Shown: positions 43,681 through 63,746 of the stretch, in pieces
How the letters are laid out: each line of letters begins with the position of its first letter
How positions within the stretch are numbered: position 1 is the stretch's first letter
Source: Octopus vulgaris
Taxonomy: Eukaryota
Length of the DNA stretch: 64,000 bases
Assembly (NCBI GenBank): GCA_951406725.2
Contig: OX597841.1
Coordinates: 28,334,001 to 28,398,000, forward strand
Direction of reading: 5' to 3'
Program-made: the position numbers and the translations under genes
The notes under the pieces: generated by a model
Databases searched by the model: none
What the model saw: the letters and a program-made list of their open reading frames with translations, nothing else
Told to the model about the DNA's origin: nothing

Positions 43681-43822
43681 TCCTCGTCATCCAACTCTAT
43701 CTCGCTTGTTTGCGAGTTAGCCTAGACTATCTACCTGAATGTCTTTGACACGGATCAAGCGAAGAGATAACGCGGAGGAAATAATTGCTGGCGTCATATT
43801 GTCATTGAGCACCGTTAGTAAT
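43680..43822 (+). promoter_or_regulatory. Probable Rictor promoter/5' UTR (CpG-rich unique DNA)
   Basis: Non-repetitive CpG-enriched stretch before the ATG. aatATGGCGGC over the start resembles a YY1 site. Confidence 0.45.
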
Positions 43823-43880
43823 ATGGCGGCCTTTGCGGTACGCCACCCAAGTCGAGCTTTGAAAAACGGCAGGCTACGAG
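43823..43880 (+). CDS. RICTOR: Rictor coding exon 1 (MAAFAVRHPSRALKNGRLR)
   Basis: ATG in a CpG-rich region and G|gtaata donor (phase 1). Resembles the vertebrate N-terminus MAA...RSLKNLRVRG. Confidence 0.85.
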
Positions 43881-45135
43881 GTAATACCATCTCTTCACAC
43901 CATTTTCCTAATACTGTAGTTTCATTTACACATGCTTACGTCTATTTACGTTGTTCTTGTGTGTCTTCCACGCCCCTACGCTGCTTTAAATCCATGCTTA
44001 ATTAGATAGATGCTATTAAAATCCTATCTTGAAAATATGGTCCGTGTTTGTGAGACGTCGTAATATTGCGTGTGAGTGTATATATACACACATATACACC
44101 TATATATGTGTGTATATATGTATGTTAGTCCTTGTTTCTTATTCTGCTGTTTGTTTACTTACGACCCGTGTACTCTATCTTACACGCAAGCGCTCTATTT
44201 ATAATAATAATAGAGCAGGTTCTTTTTTTTTTATCTTGAGTTCAAAATATTATTAGGGTCGATTGTACTTCTCAGGCCTTCCGGGGTCGAATTGATAAAG
44301 TACTGGTGGGTGGGGGTTGAGGGAGTCGATTTAATCGACTGTGCCTCGATAATCCGTGGTGCTGTGTCAGTGTAAGAAATCGTTATTAATTAGTTATTTT
44401 ATTTAATTAATCGATTTGAGCGAGCACGCCCGTTTTACGTTCCGTGTTCAAATCGTCTGAAGGAGACGACTTTGCTTTACATCCTTCTGGGGTCGATAAA
44501 TTAAGTCCTAGTTAATAACTGAGGTGACATGATGGTAGTGGTGGTGGTGGTGGTGGTGTCTTAATTGACTGCGTCCCTTCCCCGCCTATCGAAATCCGTT
44601 ACCTTGTGACTTTTACTTTTCGGAATCATAATAAAACTCTCTAACATTGGCACAAGGCCAATAATAATTATTGTTGTGTCGGATAAAGTGCCTTGCAGTA
44701 TTTGTTACTGCTCTTTACGTTCTGAGTTCAAATCCCGCCGATGTCAGCTTTACCTTTCATCGTTTTGGGGTCGATGAAATAAAGTACCGGTTGAATACTA
44801 GGGCCGATGTAACCTACTGACCTTCCTCCCATTATTGCTAGCTTCGTGTCTAAATTAGCAACAACAACAATAATATTAGTTTCAAATTTTAACACAAGGC
44901 CAGCAATTTCGGGGGACTCGCTTGCATCAACCCCCATTATTCAACTGGTACTTGTTTTCTCGTCCCTGAAAGAATGAAAGGCAAAGTCGACTATAGGCAC
45001 AAGGCCCGAAATTTTTTGAGGGGGGAGGCGATTAGTCGATTACATCGACCCCAGGGTTTCACTGGTGGTTAAGGACAGACAAACGGATTAGGTCGATTAT
45101 CTCGACCCCAATGCATAACTGGTACTTATTTAATC

Positions 45136-45368
45136 AAGGCAGCGAGCTGGCAGAAACGTTAGCATGCCGGGCGAAATGCGTAGCCGTATTTCGTCTGCCG
45201 TTACGTTCTGAGTTCAAATTCCGCCGAGGTCGACTTTGCCTTTCATCCTTTCGGGGTCGATAAATTAAGTACCAGTTACGCACTGGGGCCGATGTAATCG
45301 ACTTAGTCCGTTTGTCTGTCCTTGTTTGTCCCCTCTGTGTTTAGCCCCTTGTGCGTAGTAAAGAAATA
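45136..45368 (+). mobile_element. SINE family B nested in an antisense SINE B with a 15-bp TSD
   Basis: TSD ggtacttatttaatc at 45121 and 45369. Confidence 0.85.
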
Positions 45369-46815
45369 GGTACTTATTTAATCGAGCCCGAAAGGATGAA
45401 AGGCAAAGTTGACCCTGGCAGAATTTGAACTCGGAACATAGCGGCAGACGAAATGCTGCTAAGCATTTTGCCCTGCGTGCTAATGAATCTTCTAACTTGA
45501 CACCTTAATAATAATAATAATAATAATAATAATCTTTTCTACAATTGGCAGAAGGCTTGAGATTTTGGGGGAGGGGACTTGTTGATTACACCAACTCCAG
45601 TGCATAACTGGTACTTGTTTCATTGACCCTGAAATGAGGAAAGGCAAAATACCACATACTTTATATATTCTTTCATTCTTTTACGTGTTTCAGTCATTTG
45701 ACTGTGGCCATGCTGGAGCACCGCCTTTAGTCAAACAAATCGACCCCAGGACTTATTCTTTGGAAGCCTAGTACTTATTCTATCGGTTTCTTTTTGCCAA
45801 ACCGCTAGGTTATGGGGACGTGAAAACACCAACATCGGTTGTGAAGCAATGTTGGGGAAACAGGGTCAGACAAACATACACACACATACATATATATGAC
45901 GGGCATTGTAGGTAGGTATGAGAGACTAGATCTGGCTATTTTGAACATAAAACATGTAGAATATTCGGGCTGGTTTAAATGCTAAAAGTTTAAGGCTATG
46001 GGCTGGCAGAAATATTACGGTACTGGACAAGATACTGAGTGGTATTTCCTCCAATAAGGTGGCAAGCTGGCAGAATCGTTAGCACGCTGGGTGAAATGCT
46101 TAGTGGTATTTCGTCTGCCGTTATGTTCTGAGTTCAAATTCTGCCGAGGTCGACTTTGCTTTTCATCCTTTCGGGGTCAATAAATTAAGTATCAGTTACA
46201 CACTGGGGTCGATGTAATCGACTTAATACCTATGTCTGTCCTTGTTTGTACCCTCTGTGTTTAGCCCCTTGTGGGTAGTAAAGAAATAGGTATTTCGTCT
46301 GCCGCTACGTTCTGAGTTCAAATTCCGCCGAGGTTGACTTTGCCTTTCATCCTTTCGGGGTCAATTAAATAAGTATCAGATACGCACTGAGGTTGATGTA
46401 ATCGACTTAATCCGTCTTTCTGTCTTTGTTTGGCCCCTCTGTGTGTAGCCCCTTGTGGGTAGTAAAGAAATAGGTATTTCGTCTGCCGCTACGTTCTGAG
46501 TTCAAATTCCGCTGAGGCCGACTTTGCCTTTCGTCCTTTCGGGGTCGATAAATTAAGTGCCAGTTACGCACTGGGGTCGATGTAATCGACTGAATCCGGT
46601 TGACTTTGCTTTTCATCCTTTCAGGGTCAATAAGATACATACCAGTCTCGAGCACTGGGGTCTATGTAATCAGCTGAGCCTTTCCCCCAAAATTGCTGGC
46701 TTGGTGTCAAAATTATACACACACATATATATATATATATACATATATATATATGATGGGACTGAACCTGCAACCGTGTGGTTGGAAATCAAGCTAATTA
46801 CACACCCATTCCTAC

Positions 46816-46950
<135 letters not shown>

Positions 46951-47061
46951 TTATATATGTATTTATATATCTATATATATATATATATGTGATCTCTTAA
47001 GCACCACCAGCTCAAATATTTTTTCCTCTGTCTTCCCTTCTTGGGATCTTTCCTTCTCCTT

Positions 47062-47096
47062 GTTTCCGACGAAGAGCTCCGCTCGAAACGTTAAAC
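47062..47096 (+). ncRNA. Minimal (Penelope-type) hammerhead-like motif
   Basis: gttt CCGACGA a gagc-tcc-gctc GAAA cg TT aaac. Palindromic AACGTT in place of stem III. Confidence 0.45.
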
Positions 47097-47887
47097 CCTC
47101 CTTCCCTTCTTTCCTGAGCGTCAATAATACTTTAATTGTTCCACGTCCTGCGTTGCTGTGTTTTTTTTCTCTTTTTTTCTGTGTGTTTTCTTGTTTGGAT
47201 TAACTTTATATAGATATATATATATATATTTGTGTGTCTATATATGTATGAATATCTGTTTGTCCCTCCTTTTCTCTTGATATGTCATAGATGTAAATGT
47301 GGGCTAACATTATGCAAAATACCCATTGGCATTTCGTCAAATTCCACTGACGTCGACTTTGCCTTTCGTCCTTTTGGGGTCAGTAAAATAAGTACCAGTT
47401 ATGTACTGGGGTTGATGGTAATCGGCTTATCCCATTCCTTGAAATTGCTGGCCTTGTGACAAAATTTGAAATTCTTGCCAGCCTTGCCTGGCCTCCGTGC
47501 CAGTGGCACATAAAATGCACCATCCGATCGTGGCTGTTTGCCAGCCTCGTCTGGCATCTGTGTCGATGGCACGTAAAAAGCACCCAACACTCACGGAGTG
47601 GTTGGTGTTAGGAAGGGCATCCAGCTGTAGAAACACCGCCAGATCAGACTGGAGTCTGGTGCAGCCTTCTGGTTTCCCAGACCCCAGTTGAACCGTCCAA
47701 CCCATGCTAGCATGGAAAACGGATGTTAAACGACGACGACGATGATGATGATCCCTACTTTTGTTGAAACCCACTGCATTTGTTTCAACTGATTTCAAAG
47801 CTCATAAAGCTCATAGAGAATCTAGTAAGCTGACTGTTATTGTCAAACTGAACGTGGCCATTGCCAGCGCCGCCCCGACTGGCCTCC

Positions 47888-48540
47888 ATGCCGGTGGCAC
47901 GTAAAAAGCACTATCTGAGTGTGGCCGTTCACCAGCCTCGTCTGGCACCTGTGCCGGTGGCACGTAAAAAGCACCATCCGAGTGTGGCCGTTCACCAGCC
48001 TCGTCTGGCACCTGTGCTGGTGGCACGTAAAAAGCACCATCCGAGTGTGGCCGTTCACCAGCCTCGTCTGGCACCTGTGCTGGTGGCACGTAAAAAGCAC
48101 CATCCGAGTGTGGCCGTTCACCAGCCTCGTCTGGCACCTGTGCTGGTGGCACGTAAAAAGCACCATCCGAGTGTGGCCGTTCACCAGCCTCGTCTGGCAC
48201 CTGTGCCGGTGGCACGTAAAAAGCACCATCCGAGTGTGGCCGTTCACCAGCCTCGTCTGGCACCTGTGCCGGTGGCACGTAAAAAGCACCATCCGAGTGT
48301 GGCCGTTCACCAGCCGCGTCTGGCACCTGTGCCGGTGGCACGTAAAAAGCACCATCCGAGTGTGGCCGTTCACCAGCCTCGTCTGGCACCTGTGCCGGTG
48401 GCACGTAAAAAGCACCATCCGAGTGTGGCCGTTCACCAGCCTCGTCTGGCACCTGTGCCGGTGGCACGTAAAAGCACCATCCGAGTGTGGCCGTTCACCA
48501 GCCTCGTCTGGCACCTGTGCCGGTGGCACGTAAAAAGCAC
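47888..48540. repeat. 60-bp VNTR (about 11 units) within the RTE-type 3' UTR
   Basis: gtgccggtggcacgtaaaaagcaccatccgagtgtggccgttcaccagcctcgtctggcacct repeated. Confidence 0.95.
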
Positions 48541-49439
48541 CCACTACACTCACGGAGTGGTTGGTGTTAGGAAGGGCATCCAGCTGTAGAAACACTGCCA
48601 GATCAGACTGGGCCTGGTGCAGCCTTCTGGCTTCCCAGACCCCAGTTGAACTGTCCAACCCATGCTAGCATGGAGAGCGGACGTTAAATGATGATGATGA
48701 TGATCCCTACTTTTGTTGAAACCCACTGCATTTGTTTCAACTGATTTTAAAGCTCATAGAGAATCTAGTAAGCTGAATTTTATTGTCAAACTGAACGTGA
48801 CCATTGCCAGCGCCGCCCCGACTGGCCTCCATGCCGGTGGCACGTAAAAAGCACCATCCGAGTGTGGCCGTTCACCAGCTTCGTCTGGCACCTGTGCCGG
48901 TGGCACGTAAAAAGCACCATCTGAGTGTGGCCGTTCACCAGCCTCATCTGGCACCTGTGCCGGTGGCACATAAAAAGCACCATCCGAGTGTGGCTGTTCA
49001 CCAGCCTCGTCTGGCACCTGTGCTGGTGGCACATAAAAAGCACCATCCGAGTGTGGCCGTTCGCCAGCCTCGTCTGGCACCTGTACCGGTGGCATGTAAA
49101 ATACACCCACTACACTCTCGGAGTGGTTGGCGTTAGGAAGGGCATCCAGCTGTAGAAACACTGCCAGATCAGACTGGAGCCTGGTGCAGCCTTCGGGCTT
49201 CCCAGACCCCGGTTGAACCGTCCAACCCATGCCAGCATGGAAATACACCCACTACACTCATGGAGTGGTTGGCGTTAGGAAGGGCATCCAGCTGTAGAAA
49301 CACTGCCAGATCAAGACTGGAGCCTGGTGCAGCCATCTGGCTTCCCAGACCCCAGTTGAACCGTCCAACCCATGCTAGCATGGAAAGCGGACGTTAAACG
49401 ATGACGATGATGATGATGATTATTATTTCTATCTTGCAG

Positions 49440-49487
49440 GTCGCCATGAAAGCGGCGAAGAAAATATTCGACTAGACTTATCCCGAG
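49440..49487 (+). CDS. RICTOR: Rictor coding exon 2 (GRHESGEENIRLDLSR)
   Basis: ttgcag acceptor and G|gtcagt donor, 48 nt. Matches GRNDSGEENVPLDLTR of vertebrate Rictor. Confidence 0.93.
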
Positions 49488-51168
49488 GTCAGTATATTTC
49501 CATTACTCTCTGTCCGCCCCTTGCCCATCTCTATATTTTTGGCCCCTTGTACTTCACTCATTCAAAATATCACCCATCCCCCCCCCAACACTCCTGAGCC
49601 AACCAAGGAGACCTCTACATGGTTGCTCAACCTGCTAGAAACAGCAGCCAATTCTCCCTCAGGTCACACCCTGATGTATGTTTATTGGTGAGTATGAACT
49701 AACAACGGCTGCCCCTGAATGGTAGCCGGAGCTGTTGGAAGAAATAGCAGCCAAATCTCCATCAAATTGCACCCTGCTGCCTTATATTGTTGCATCTTCT
49801 GCTCTTCTCTCCTATTCTGTCTCATATTTACCTTGTACCTGGACCTCACACCACCTTCTGTCTCTCTGTCTGTCAGCCTGTCTCTCTCTTTATGAGTTGC
49901 CAAGCCATGTAGTGACCCCTTCAGCGAGACACCTGCTCCTCTCACTCTATCATAATTTCTTATTCTTTTACTTTCTTTCTTTTACTTGTTCCAGTCATTT
50001 GACTGCGGCCATGCTGGAGCACCGCCTTTTAGTCGAGCAAATCGAACCCGGGACTTATTCTTTGTAAGCCCAGTACTTAATCTATCGGTCTCTTTTGCCG
50101 AACCGCTAAGTTACGGGGACGTAAACACACCAGCATCGGTTGTCAAGCAATGCTAGGGGGACAAACACAGCAGACACACAAACACACACATACATACATA
50201 CATATATATATATACATATATACGACAGGCTTCTTTCAGTTTCCGTCTACCAAATCCACTCACAAGGCATTGGTCGGCCCGGGGCTATAGTTGAAGACAC
50301 TTGCCCAAGATGCCACGCAGTGGGACTGAACCCGGGACCATGTGGTTGGTTAGCAAGCTACTTACCACACAGCCACTCCTATATACATATATACGACAGG
50401 CTTCTTTCAGTTTCCGTCTACCAAATCCACTCACAAGGCTTTGGTCGGCCCGGGGCTATAGCAGAAGACACTTGCCCAAGATGCCACGCAGTGGGACTGA
50501 ACCCGGGACCATGTGGTTGGTTAGCAAGCTACTTACCACACAGCCACTCCTACGCCTATCTCTCCATTCTATGCCTCGCTTACTTGAGGTGGGTGGGGTC
50601 CTCATCTTGTGGGTACTTGGTGACCTCACCAGTGCTGGTGCCTGGCAAAAAGCACCCAGTAAAGGGAATCCAGTCATAAAGACCCTGCCAAAGCAGACAC
50701 AGAATCTGGTTGAACTTTGTAGGTTGTCTGTTTTTGTCAAACTGTCCAACCCATGCCAGCATGGCAAAGAGGATGTTAAATGATGATGATGATTGTGCCG
50801 GTGGCACGTAAAAAGCACCAATCGAGCGTGATTGTTACCAGCGCCGCCTTACTGGCACGTGAAAAAACATTCGAGCGAGGTTGTTGCCAGTGCCGCTGGA
50901 CTGGCTCCTGTACAGGTGGCACGTAAAAAACACCATCTGAGCGCGGCCGTTGCCAGTACCACCTGAATGGCCCTCATGCCAGTGGCACATAAAAGTACCC
51001 ACTACACTCTTGGAGTGGTTGGCGTTATGAAGGGCATCCAGCTGTAGAAACTCTGCCAGATCAAGACTGGAGCCTGGTGCAGCCATCTGGTTCGCCAGAC
51101 CTCAGTCAATTTGTCCAACCCATGCTAGCATGGAAAGCGGATGTTAAACGATGATGATGATATATGTA

Positions 51169-51228
<60 letters not shown>

Positions 51229-52011
51229 TACATTTATATGAAAAGCACCAACCAGTCATAGCCGATGCCAATACTTCATGACTAGCTCTTGTGCTGGTGG
51301 CATGTAAAAAGCACCATCTGAACATGATCGAAGCCAGACCTGCTTGACTGGCATTTGTGCCAGTGGTATGTAAAACGCACCCACGACACTCTCGGAGTGG
51401 TTGGCGTTAAGAAGGGCATCCGGCTGTAGAAACTGTCATATTAGATTGGAGCCTGGTGCAGCCATCTGGTTTGCCAGACCCCAATTAAACCGTCCAACCC
51501 ATGCTAGCATCGAAAGCAGACGTTAAACGATGATGATGATGATATATATATACACACACACATACATTTATATAAAAAGCACCATCCGAACGTGATCAAA
51601 GCCAGATCTGCTTGATTGGCACCTGTGAAGGTGGCGCATAAAAAGCACCCACTACACTCTTGGAGTGGTTGGCGTTAGGAAGGGCATCCAGCTGTAGAAA
51701 TTCTGCCAGATCAGATTGGAGCCTGGTGCAGCCATCAGGTTCACCAGACCTCAGTCAAATTGTCTAACCCATGCCGGCATGGAAAGCGGACCTTAAACGA
51801 TGATGATGATGATGATGATGATGATATATATCATCTTCATCATTTAACGTCTGTTTTCCATGCTGGCATGGGTTGGACGGTTTGACTGTAACTGGTAAAT
51901 CAGAGGGCTGCACCAATGCAGTGCACCCCGCTCTCTCTCTCTCTCTCTCTCCTTAAACCTCAGTACTCAATCCCCACTAAACCTTACCCCTTCTCACCTT
52001 CTCTTTAACAG

Positions 52012-52171
52012 CCCCATCTGAGAATGTTAAGGAGGTTCTCAGCAATGTTGTCTGTCAGAACGGGATATCCAAGAATAAAAAACTTGGCTACCTCAACTTC
52101 TTTGTCAAGTTACTCAACAAACTTGGCCCATCGAAGAACCTTGGCTACACCATGGAAGAGATCCTTTGCTG
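52012..52171 (+). CDS. RICTOR: Rictor coding exon 3 (APSENVKEVLSNVVCQNGISKNKKLGYLNFFVKLLNKLGPSKNLGYTMEEILC)
   Basis: aacag acceptor and TG|gtaagt donor, 160 nt, phases 1-2. Aligns with PSDNLREILQNV...RKLGHLNNFTKLL. Confidence 0.93.
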
Positions 52172-57717: not shown

Positions 57718-57849
57718 CCTGAAAGTTGGTCTCCTTCACGAAGCAAAAGAGGTACGTGCTGCCACCTTGAGGGTTATTCGCTACCTACTCACCGAGCAGA
57801 AGGTTCTAGATATTATTGTCAGTTTACACATTGACTACCTCATAGCAAG
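57718..57849 (+). CDS. RICTOR: Rictor coding exon 4 (CLKVGLLHEAKEVRAATLRVIRYLLTEQKVLDIIVSLHIDYLIAR)
   Basis: ttcag acceptor and AG|gtaagc donor, 132 nt. EAKEVRAA-x-LR...DYLIAR is a Rictor N-terminal ARM signature. Confidence 0.95.
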
Positions 57850-59580: not shown

Positions 59581-59771
59581 ATGTCTGGACATCTGCCTGA
59601 GCAACGAGGTCGAACGCATCCATGCCATGAAACTGATCCGGAAGATAATCCAGCTGTTTCCCCACCAGGTGCCGCTGTCGATGCTCTACCCCATGGTGGC
59701 TATTGGCAGGGACGGCTCCTCCGAGAGGGATCGACTGAGGCGGGCTTGTCTTGCAACCATCTGTGAACTCG
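59581..59771 (+). CDS. RICTOR: Rictor coding exon 5 (CLDICLSNEVERIHAMKLIRK...ERDRLRRACLATICEL)
   Basis: ctctag acceptor and G|gtaagt donor, 191 nt. NEVER and ERDR-x-x-RAC-x-A-x-ICEL are conserved in Rictor. The gene continues past the window. Confidence 0.95.
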
Positions 59772-59898
59772 GTAAGTATTCCTACACTTGCTCTCTGTGT
59801 GTATGTGTGCGCATGTATATGTGTGTGTGTGTGTGTGCCCCAGCATGGCCACAGCTCGTGAGCTGAAACTAGATAAAGATAAAGATATATATATATAT

Positions 59899-60882
59899 AG
59901 GCGCAGGAGTGGCTGTGTGGTAAGTAGCTTGCTTACCAACCACATGGTTCCGGGTTCAGTCCCACTGCGCGGCACCTTGGGCAAGTGTCTTCTACTATAG
60001 CCTCGGGCCGACCAAAGCCTTGTGAGTGGATTTGGTAGACGGAAACTGAAAGAAGCCCGTCGTATATATGTATATATATATATATATATATAGGTGCAGG
60101 AGTGGCTGTGTGGTAAGTAGCTTGTTTACCAACCACATGGTTCCGGGTTCAGTCTCACTGCGTGGCACCTTGGGCAAGTGTCTTCTACTGTAGCCTCGGG
60201 CCGACCAAAGCCTTGTGAGTGGATTTGGTAGACGGAAACTGAAAGAAGCCCGTCGTATATATGTATATATATATATGTATAGGTGCAGGAGTGGCTGTGT
60301 GGTAAGTAGCTTGCTTACCAACCACATGGTTCCGGGTTCAGTCCCACTGCGTGGCACCTTGGGCAAGTGTATTCTACTATAGCCTCGGGCCGACCAAAGC
60401 CTTGTGAGTGGATTTGGTAGACGGAAACTGAAAGAAGCCCGTCGTATATATGTATATATATATATATATATATAGGTGCAGGAGTGGCTGTGTGGTAAGT
60501 AGCTTGCTTACCAACCACATGGTTCCGGGTTCAGTCCCACTGCGTGGCACCTTGGGCAAGTGGCTTCTACTATAGCCTCGGGCCGACCAAAGCCTTGTGA
60601 GTGGATTTGGTAGACGGAAACTGAAAGAAGCCCATCGTATATATGTATATATATATATATATGTGTGTGTGTGCGTGTATGTTTGTGTATCTGTGTTTGT
60701 CCCCCTAGCATTGCTTGACAACCGATGCTGGTGTGTTTATGTCCCCGTTACTTAGCAGTTCGGCAAAAGTGACCGATAGAATAAGTACTGGGCTTACAAA
60801 GAATAAGTCCCGGGTCGATTTGCTCGACTAAAGGCGGTGCTTCAGCATGGCCGCAGCCAAATGACTGAAACAAGTAAAAGAG
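59899..60882 (+). mobile_element. SINE family A with four tandem tRNA-like heads and one tail
   Basis: A ~190-bp head unit repeated 4 times, separated by (TA)n. Confidence 0.88.
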
Positions 60883-60931
60883 TATATATATATATGATAT
60901 ATATCATATATATATATATATATACATATAT

Positions 60932-60972
<41 letters not shown>

Positions 60973-61216
60973 GTGGAAGCGCAATGGCCCAGTTGTTAGG
61001 GCAGCGGACTCGCGGTTGGAGGATCGCGTTTCGATTCCCAGACCGGGCAGGGGGTGGTGATCCCTGCTGTACTCTTTCACCACTCTTTCTTCTGTTGGCC
61101 TGCTCGCTTAGCCAGCGGGGTGGCGTCATTCGAAGGCTAAAACAATGCGAAGCGTGTTGTGACCAGCGATGTGTAGCAACATCTGATGGTCTGGTTGGTC
61201 ACGTGATCACGTGATA
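60973..61216 (+). mobile_element. tRNA-derived SINE family C
   Basis: A box tggcccagttg and B-like box gtttcgattcc. Embedded in (TA)n and ends gtcacgtgatcacgtgat. Confidence 0.6.
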
Positions 61217-61674
61217 TATATATATACATATATATATCAGATTTTGTAAGTAGTAGATGTACGTGTGTGTGTGTGTTGGTGCAGGCATGGCTGAGTGGTA
61301 AGATACTTGCTTCTGAACCTCATGTTCCTGGGTTCAGTCCCACTGCATGGCACCTTGTGTCTTCTACTATAGCCCTGGACCAACCAAAGCCTTGTGAGTG
61401 GATTTGGTAGATGGAAACTGAAAGAAACCTGTTGCATGTGTGTGTGTGTTCATGTCTGTATCCTCCACCGTATGACAACCGGTGTTGGTTTGTTTACATC
61501 CCCATAACTTAGCAGTTTGGTAAAAAGAGGCAAAATATGTACCAGGGTTAAAATGTTTGAAAAATGAATTCTGGGGTCGATTTTGTTTGACTGAAAAAAT
61601 TCTTCAAGGCGGTGCCCCAGCATGGCCACAGTCTGATGACCGAAACGAGTAAAAGGTTAAAGATATCGTCGTGG

Positions 61675-62560
61675 TTACTGCCACTTTCACCACCACAACT
61701 ACCATTACTGCTTTCACTACCACCACCACCACTACCACAACCACCACCACCACCACAACCACCACCACCATTCTTGGTCATATGGTATAATATCACTACT
61801 ACTATTACCACCATGGTAATCACTACCACCACCACTACTACTACCACCACCACTACAATTACCACTACCACTACTATTACCACTACCACCACCACTACCA
61901 ATACCACCACCACCACTATCACCACCACACTCAGTCATGTGGTATTACTCTGCTACTACCACCATGGTAACCACCACCACCACCGTACTTGGTCATATGC
62001 TATAATATTACTATTACTATTACCACCATGGTAACCACACTACCACCACCACCACCACTACCAATATCACTACCACCATTACCACCACTACCACTTCCAT
62101 CATCACCACACTCAGTCATGTGGTATTACACTGCTACTACCACCACGGTAACCACCACCACCACTACTACCACTACCACCACCACCACTACCAATACCAC
62201 CACCACCACTACTACCACCACCACACTCAGTCATGTGGTATTACACTGCTACTACCACCACGGTAACCACCACCACCACTACTACCACTACCCACCACCA
62301 CCACCACTACCAATACCACCACCACCACTACTACCACCACCACACTCAGTCATGTGGTATTACACTGCTACTACCACCACGGTAACCACCACCACCACTA
62401 CTACCACTACCACCACCACTACCAATACCACCACCACCACACTCAGTCATGTGGTATTACACTGCTACTACCACCACGGTAACCACACTACCACCACCAC
62501 CATTACTACTACTACCATCACCACCACCACTACTGCCACCACCACCACCACCATCACCAT
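61675..62560. repeat. (CCA/CTA)n tract with an interspersed ~50-bp motif (cacactcagtcatgtggtattacactgctac)
   Basis: The motif recurs about 5 times in the trinucleotide matrix. Confidence 0.9.
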
Positions 62561-62610
62561 GTAATTTCCTATTGAAGTTTTCACTAGTTTTTCCTCCGCC
62601 CAAACATTAG

Positions 62611-62667
62611 GCACAAAAAAGACGGATGGACTGAGGCAAGTATGCCTTGCCACCTTATGTGAACTGG
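62611..62667 (+). other. Candidate Rictor cassette exon or pseudo-exon: diverged copy of the 3' end of exon 5 (GTKKTDGLRQVCLATLCEL)
   Basis: Pyrimidine tract then cattag acceptor, 57 nt, phase 1-1, G|gtaagt donor. Clear similarity to 59723-59777. Confidence 0.55.
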
Positions 62668-63746
62668 GTAAGTACCACCTCTCCACACCGATCCATCTCT
62701 TCACTCTAACACTCCGTTCCAACTCACTAACCTTACACTTTCTCCATTAACTCTCTTCCCCGCCCCTCTCTCTCTCTCTCTCTCTCTACATATCCATCTA
62801 TCTATCCATTCATCTATTTATCTCTCCATCTATCTAGGGATCTATCTATTTGTATCTCTCTCTCTCTCTCTCTCTATTAGTATCTTTCTTTTTGTCTCTC
62901 TCTCTCTCTCTCTATTTGTCTCTCTCTCTCTCTATTTGTCTCTCTTTCTATTTGTCTCTCTCTCTTTGTCTCTTTCTCTCTCTCTCTCTATTTGTCTCTC
63001 TCTCTCTTTGTCTCTCTCTCTCTCTCTATTTGTCTCTCTTTCTATTTGTCTCTCTTTCTATTTGTCTCTCTCTATTTGTCTCTCTCTATTTGTCTCTCTC
63101 TCTTTGTCTCTCTTTGTCTCTCTCTCTCTCTTTGTCTCTCTTTGTCTCTTTCTCTTTGTCTCTCTCTCTCTCTTTGTCTCTTTCTCTATTTGTTTCTCTC
63201 TCAATTTGTCTCTCTCTCTATTTGTCTCTCTTTCTATTTATCTCTCTCTATTTGTCTCTCTCTCTCTCTTTCTCTATTTGTCTCTCTCTCTATATTTGTC
63301 TCTTTCTCTCTTTGTCTCTCTCTCTCTCTTTATTTGTCTCTCTCTCTGTTTGTCTCTTTCTATTTGTCTCTCTCTCTTCTCTTACCTTCATCTTTTCCCG
63401 TCCATCTTCCATCTCTTTCTACATTGTCCTCTCCCTCCATCTCGCTCTTTCTCCCCCGCATCTCTCCTCTTTAACAAACAACTCACACAATTCTATCTAA
63501 CCATTAAAAAGAAATCTAATTCAAATTTATTACTCAGAGACACCATCTGCACAAAAGAGCTACATTTAAGTGCGTGCAAATGTGTTGAATGTTGTGAGAT
63601 TATTTAAAAATCAATGTTTTATAGGAATACAGTATTTCATTATGCAACCATAACATAATACAAAGTATATTAAATGCTTTATAAGCCAATACTGTGTTCT
63701 ACTGTGTTAGCAGTGCTATAACATCATTTGTTAAGGTTATCTTTTA

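Follow-up and report, generated by a model that had tools for sequence, protein, structure and literature searches.

A partial duplicate of Rictor exon 5 in Octopus vulgaris and its possible splicing as a minor in-frame cassette

Short local duplications have been described in vertebrates as doublets, a class with a mean length of 162 bp in which the copy lies less than 5 kb from its source (Pace et al. 2009, PMC2671141). Doublets may include part of an exon together with a splice site (4 partial exon/intron donors among 824 in human), and two whole-exon copies treated in the accessible part of that study showed no constraint. A second related class is tandem exon duplication with alternative splicing (Ivanov and Pervouchine 2022, PMC9013439; Martinez-Gomez et al. 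2022, PMC9741552), in which, according to the accessible text of those papers, an exon has a homologue in the adjacent intron, on the same strand and in the same frame.

Here we describe a locus in the Rictor gene of Octopus vulgaris that resembles both classes. Like a doublet, it is a short copy with a single counterpart nearby (55 nt, 2.9 kb apart and so within 5 kb), but the doublets of Pace et al. are from vertebrates, whereas the octopus copy may be exonised in frame, and its ends are eroded, with repair hallmarks unreadable at 80% identity. Like the tandem duplicates, it is an exon homologue in the adjacent intron with the same strand and frame; unlike them, it consists of only the 3' quarter of the exon, has a new acceptor, and would follow its parent in the transcript rather than take its place.

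The partial copy and its setting in Rictor

The window that we analysed is a stretch of 64,000 nucleotides (G000:C28:28334001-28398000), and positions are given within it unless another stretch is named. It contains coding exons 1-5 of Rictor on the forward strand, and the remaining exons extend for approximately 90 kb past its end. Coding exons 1-3 are at 43823-43880, 49440-49487 and 52012-52171 (a span of 43823-52171), exon 4 is at 57718-57849, and exon 5, the parent of the copy, is at 59581-59771 (191 nt, 63 codons). Exon 6 starts beyond the window at L002:3930 (G000:C28:28401930). Exon 5 matches NCBI models named Octopus vulgaris and Octopus sinensis with 100% identity, and residues 132-194 of human Rictor with E = 2e-13. 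These residues are part of the human armadillo domain (residues 26-487), which contacts mTOR and holds the N-terminus of SIN1, according to the accessible text of PMC7673708.

Some other features of the gene were seen in passing. An in-frame ATG upstream of exon 1 (window 43739-43822) would add an N-terminal extension of 28 residues, which the RefSeq O. sinensis model uses, and there are two alternatives for the first exons of Rictor among squid or cuttlefish-type proteins. For residues 795-932 of P0007, a complete coleoid Rictor, we found no match in the sequence examined, and these residues (about 138) are absent from both O. vulgaris-named models as well. An assembly gap of 100 Ns lies within Rictor at L006:5582-5681.

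The detectable block of homology is at 62620-62674 on the forward strand and corresponds to the last 48 nt of exon 5 plus 7 nt of its donor (59724-59778), with 80% identity over 55 nt (blastn E = 3e-8). This bears out the sequence-only reading, which had called a diverged partial duplicate of Rictor exon 5 here. The local alignment score between copy and exon 5 is 53, compared to a maximum of 29 across 1511 other 141-nt windows on both strands, so the likeness is beyond chance. We found no homology past approximately 62620-62674, because the upstream similarity was reached by 300 of 300 shuffles and the downstream similarity by 271 of 300. Putative upstream remnants of exon 5 or its intron, in the form of 6-7-mers, were dropped, as 130-395 of 1000 shuffles match them. 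Exon 5 and the copy have one genomic match each, and on these grounds, and because the peptide occurs in a second species' model, we reject both a second Rictor paralogue and an echo in the assembly.

Between parent and copy, the spacer at 59885-62560 (no strand assigned) comprises a 193-bp repeat array, (TA)n and an (ACC)n-type satellite. The array, at 59885-60662, consists of a 193-bp dispersed repeat present four times in head-to-tail order, with 96% identity among the copies and (TA)n between them.

Across the 14 codons shared by copy and parent there are 10 nucleotide differences, distributed 2/2/6 by codon position, and no indels. They cause four amino-acid changes (A>V, I>L, R>G and R>Q); the earlier reading was right about the lack of indels in this core but listed only two changes, omitting R>G and R>Q. 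Among Rictor homologs (147 of 151 cover the region), the new V occurs in 21 and the new L in 103, whereas the G that replaces the first arginine occurs in 0 of 147 and the Q that replaces the second in 1 of 142. The same division is seen in 18 non-cephalopod molluscs, of which 10 use V and 5 use L at the A>V and I>L positions, while all 18 have R or K at both arginine positions.

Splice sites, transcripts and annotation

The copy can be read as a candidate cassette exon at 62611-62667 on the forward strand (57 nt, phase 1-1), whose 19 amino acids would repeat the loop and the last helix of exon 5. It has GT-AG ends, a length that is a multiple of three, no stop codon, and a weak acceptor. To score the sites we used a matrix made from Rictor's own splice sites (28 acceptors and 29 donors, leave-one-out, with two of the donor picks probably wrong), and because this matrix is small the following scores are a rough guide. 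The copied 5' splice site, GTAAGT at 62668-62673, scores 9.6 bits, which is near the median of real Rictor donors and compares with 9.0 bits for the donor of exon 5 itself. On the acceptor side, three weak candidates lie within 62576-62610 on the same strand, with AGs ending at 62577, 62587 and 62610 that would produce exons of 90, 80 and 57 nt and that score +1.2, -2.3 and -2.3 bits, respectively. All three fall under each of the 28 real Rictor acceptors, the lowest of which scores 1.3 bits, and the scores of the 57- and 80-nt acceptors are equalled or exceeded by 27% of all AGs in the gene. The acceptor of the copy is new, and is not derived from exon 5.

The AGs that had been placed at 62586-62587 and 62609-62610, the exon end at 62667 and the GTAAGT from 62668 were all recovered in our analysis, as was the arithmetic of a 57-nt phase 1-1 exon and an 80-nt phase 2-1 exon. 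The description of the splice sites as intact holds for the donor (9.6 bits) but not for the acceptor, which scores -2.3 bits and was not inherited. A further option had been overlooked, namely the 90-nt version at window 62578-62667, which is phase 1-1, in-frame and stop-free. Its acceptor, though weak, scores highest of the three, and a TAAT motif lies at 62562.

In four runs from four studies (X14, X4, X6 and X17), one contig per run spans exon 5, at depths of 9, 40, 8 and 41, and in all four the contig's loose ends coincide with the points where exon 4 ends and exon 6 starts. The kind of these runs is guessed or unknown, but the joins are nevertheless spliced. Since exons 4, 5 and 6 are joined in 4/4 contigs, the dominant transcript uses exon 5 and skips the copy; the copy is skipped in the assembled transcripts, and the skipping junction expected beside a cassette is present in every one of them. 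Because contigs drop rare variants, this sets no bound on minor or tissue-specific inclusion. Junction reads into the copy had been proposed as a check, and in the contigs that we examined, from 7 of 18 runs overall, we saw no junction of this type, only the joins from exon 4 to 5 to 6. Contigs on the copy itself were found in none of four runs (X14, X3, X7 and X5), where missing cover is no evidence of absence. The 24 runs retrieved were found with exon 5, and not the copy, as the query, and 0 of the 24 are on record as RNA.

The cassette does appear in one annotated protein. RefSeq XP_036371008.1 (P0002), a Rictor-like protein of O. sinensis, has a 19-residue stretch identical to the cassette where exons 5 and 6 meet, made with the same acceptor, so the copy is present in the assembly of a second species and the 57-nt reading is already public. 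This model is an automatic fragment of 648 aa, the last residues of which are unmatched in this stretch. According to the accessible part of a description of the RefSeq pipeline (PMC5737279, on the buffalo annotation), models are made from alignments after filtering of rare introns, and an HMM adds ends or fills small gaps; we consider it likely that the cassette in XP_036371008.1 has transcript support. O. sinensis split off 2.5 My ago (PMC10700109, accessible text), and the other exons of the model also match this genome fully over their exonic parts. The identity of the cassette between the two species is therefore uninformative on selection.

Of 116 further Rictor homologs, 111 have no insertion at the exon 5-6 joint, and the other five were unmeasurable. 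The insert is absent from two O. vulgaris-named models, two Argonauta proteins, and seven full-length proteins of squid or cuttlefish type; the two O. vulgaris-named models may derive from the genome analysed here, so they are not independent evidence. The RefSeq exon and the lack of any insertion in the 111 others make a lineage-restricted in-frame cassette plausible. The earlier proposal of a lineage-specific isoform is thus upheld insofar as the 57-nt cassette is encoded by the O. sinensis model, and is weakened by the RNA, which skips the copy (4/4), and by the weak acceptor.

Searches for further occurrences were negative within their scope. Four candidate short proteins yielded no match to the cassette, and no Rictor from O. 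bimaculoides or Amphioctopus was among the matches listed (the best 120 of 325 in one search). No title or abstract about this exon was among those listed for rictor with octopus and for Rictor isoforms or duplication, XP_036371008.1 was named in no paper, and the word 'rictor' does not occur in three text files and the PDF of the supplements to PMC9699675.

The O. sinensis model also contains a 51-nt symmetric exon (L003:649-699) between exons 7 and 8. It codes for 17 amino acids with a basic character, has a normal acceptor (6.6 bits), and is seen in this model only, of 13 cephalopod proteins aligned. We regard it as a candidate real alternative exon.

Competing readings of the copy

We tentatively favour the interpretation that the copy is an old local duplicate that is probably spliced only rarely, as a near-neutral minor 57-nt cassette that likely has little function. 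A local duplication of repair or slippage type would have put the last 48 nt of exon 5 and its donor into intron 5 tens of My ago, and subsequent repeat insertions may have moved the copy away from its parent to its present site 2.9 kb downstream. We can only infer the mechanism, because the junctions are eroded. Low-level inclusion of the cassette, which we consider likely, would rely on exon definition, with the copied donor pairing with a weak chance AG at 62609-62610, and could be near neutral because 57 nt leave the frame unchanged and 19 extra residues are predicted to be tolerated by the armadillo fold. Decay is indicated by the loss of both conserved arginines and by the 2/2/6 codon-position pattern, which fits a free copy diverging from a constrained parent. 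Weighing against little function are the changes compatible with the family profile, the V and L that other molluscs use, the donor, and a frame kept open over the estimated age. Weighing against any splicing are the lack of an RNA junction and the fragmentary state of the RefSeq model, from a pipeline that can fill gaps by HMM.

Using a rate of 0.0036 substitutions per site per My (PMC13282606, accessible text), we estimate the age of the copy at 97-135 My, with a lower 95% bound of 26-39 My, and no stop codon or indel has arisen since. We did not adopt the possibility that V and L are ancestral states predating the coleoid split: although the wide dS interval is compatible with it, all five coleoid rows shown have A, and most molluscs have I.

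It seems to us rather unlikely that the copy is instead a selected cassette, probably tissue- or stage-restricted, in which the copy replaces the last armadillo helix of exon 5 and the original is looped out. In favour of selection, the substitutions suit the family profile, the hydrophobic C-terminal half is almost unaltered, the acceptor is in register so that the product is an ungapped 19-residue repeat, and the exon is included in XP_036371008.1. The contigs (4/4 skipping), the weak acceptor and the loss of both arginines argue against it, and the cassette's identity in O. sinensis carries no weight either way.

Rates of change can be read in both directions. Comparing the copy with its parent gives a dN/dS ratio of 0.20 for 14 codons and 0.39 for 19 codons, where we would expect a value near 0.5 for a dead copy compared to a constrained parent. 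The free-omega estimate is 0.41 over the 14 codons, which favours selection, but omega is 0.79 over the 19 codons and a likelihood ratio test does not reject the dead-copy model (p = 0.21 and 0.67 for 14 and 19 codons). In simulations, the copy fits the family profile better than expected under neutral decay (p of about 0.02 for 14 codons, 0.011-0.074 for 16, and 0.001-0.011 for 19), although the statistic and the windows of 14-19 codons were picked after the data had been seen, only four to eight changes are involved, and our scan favours well-preserved copies. We take this as a real but modest hint of constraint. All 7 donor bases are kept, as also happens in 13-28% of matched neutral simulations.

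A predicted structure also counts in favour of this reading. We ran AlphaFold2 on P0002 with an alignment of 55 sequences, and read the helix swap from pLDDT and DSSP, not from 3D coordinates. With the insert, the flanking armadillo repeats have pLDDT above 90 on both sides, residues 214-229, which cover the new loop and the greater part of the original helix, fall below 50, and the copy is modelled as a helix at residues 231-246 (pLDDT 75-94), even though the alignment put most homolog residues on the original helix. In a control without the insert, the pLDDT of the helix is 83-96. The structure prediction called for in the sequence-only reading suggests that inclusion of the cassette would be tolerated, through either a helix swap or a loop-out. 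The best structural match of the model is human Rictor (PDB 7PE8_E; Z = 24.2, rmsd 10.3, 531 aligned), and the ESM Atlas gave generic ARM/HEAT look-alikes only.

The strongest form of this alternative would be an octopus-specific selected Rictor isoform, tens of My old, where the copied helix takes over the position of the original in the mTOR/SIN1-binding armadillo domain and tunes mTORC2 in some tissue; we think this unlikely. If selection were the true explanation, the locus would be a structural splice variant in a core domain of mTORC2, at a joint that is free of insertions in the 111 other Rictor proteins measured, and a clear example of how a new exon can arise from part of an old one.

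Similarly doubtful is the possibility that the copy is a dead, unspliced remnant and the RefSeq exon an artefact of gene prediction, drawn by coding-like sequence and a strong donor. The acceptor score is an ordinary one for an AG, the contigs skip the copy, the RefSeq model is fragmentary, other donor-end copies exist elsewhere in Rictor (see below), and both O. vulgaris-named NCBI models skip the copy, though they may derive from the genome analysed here and so are not independent. Against this, the exon is within a part of the RefSeq model that appears well transcribed, where filling of a gap would be unneeded, as we read the accessible account of the pipeline (PMC5737279); the same model picks the 51-nt exon with its normal acceptor, a choice that suggests transcript support; and the simulations hint at constraint. 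If the copy is either a dead remnant or the near-neutral leak that we favour, it is ordinary, being one of several donor-end duplicates in Rictor, and it cautions users of the O. sinensis RefSeq Rictor model that a non-dominant exon is included there.

The earlier suggestion of a mutually exclusive 80-nt version in place of exon 5 is unsupported and very unlikely to be right, for although this version has phases 2-1 like exon 5, is stop-free and similar in sequence, and would shift the frame if its 80 nt were added after exon 5, it is 111 nt shorter than exon 5 (80 vs 191 nt, where the criteria of Hatje et al. 2017 allow 60 nt in the accessible text of PMC5740500), it would delete 37 residues including N169, E172, R173, L179 and R181 (each at least 90% conserved among 55 sequences), its acceptor scores -2.3 bits, exon 4 is joined to exon 5 in 4/4 contigs, and the RefSeq model uses the other acceptor, leaving it with no RNA or annotation support.

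Donor-end duplicates elsewhere in Rictor

Two-copy spaced direct repeats of 30-120 nt are common in this region, with five in 214 kb, and the exon 5 pair is the most diverged of them. For three of the 30 Rictor exons, the 3' end and donor recur downstream, with the other two copies containing only approximately 14-30 exon bases; none of the 30 exons has a copy of its acceptor end.

Another Rictor exon is associated with a 46-nt direct repeat (L006:7783-7828 and L006:8707-8752, 91% identity) that consists of the end of the exon, its donor and 30 intron bases. These repeats flank a 900-nt satellite, which is the same layout as in the exon 5 pair, but younger. At L009:2588-3365, about 72.6 kb past the end of the window, there is a 37-bp minisatellite of 21 units derived from a late Rictor exon, namely from its 3' end and donor. 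Thirteen units in and around this minisatellite retain GAGGTAAGT, so this late exon has many competing donors.
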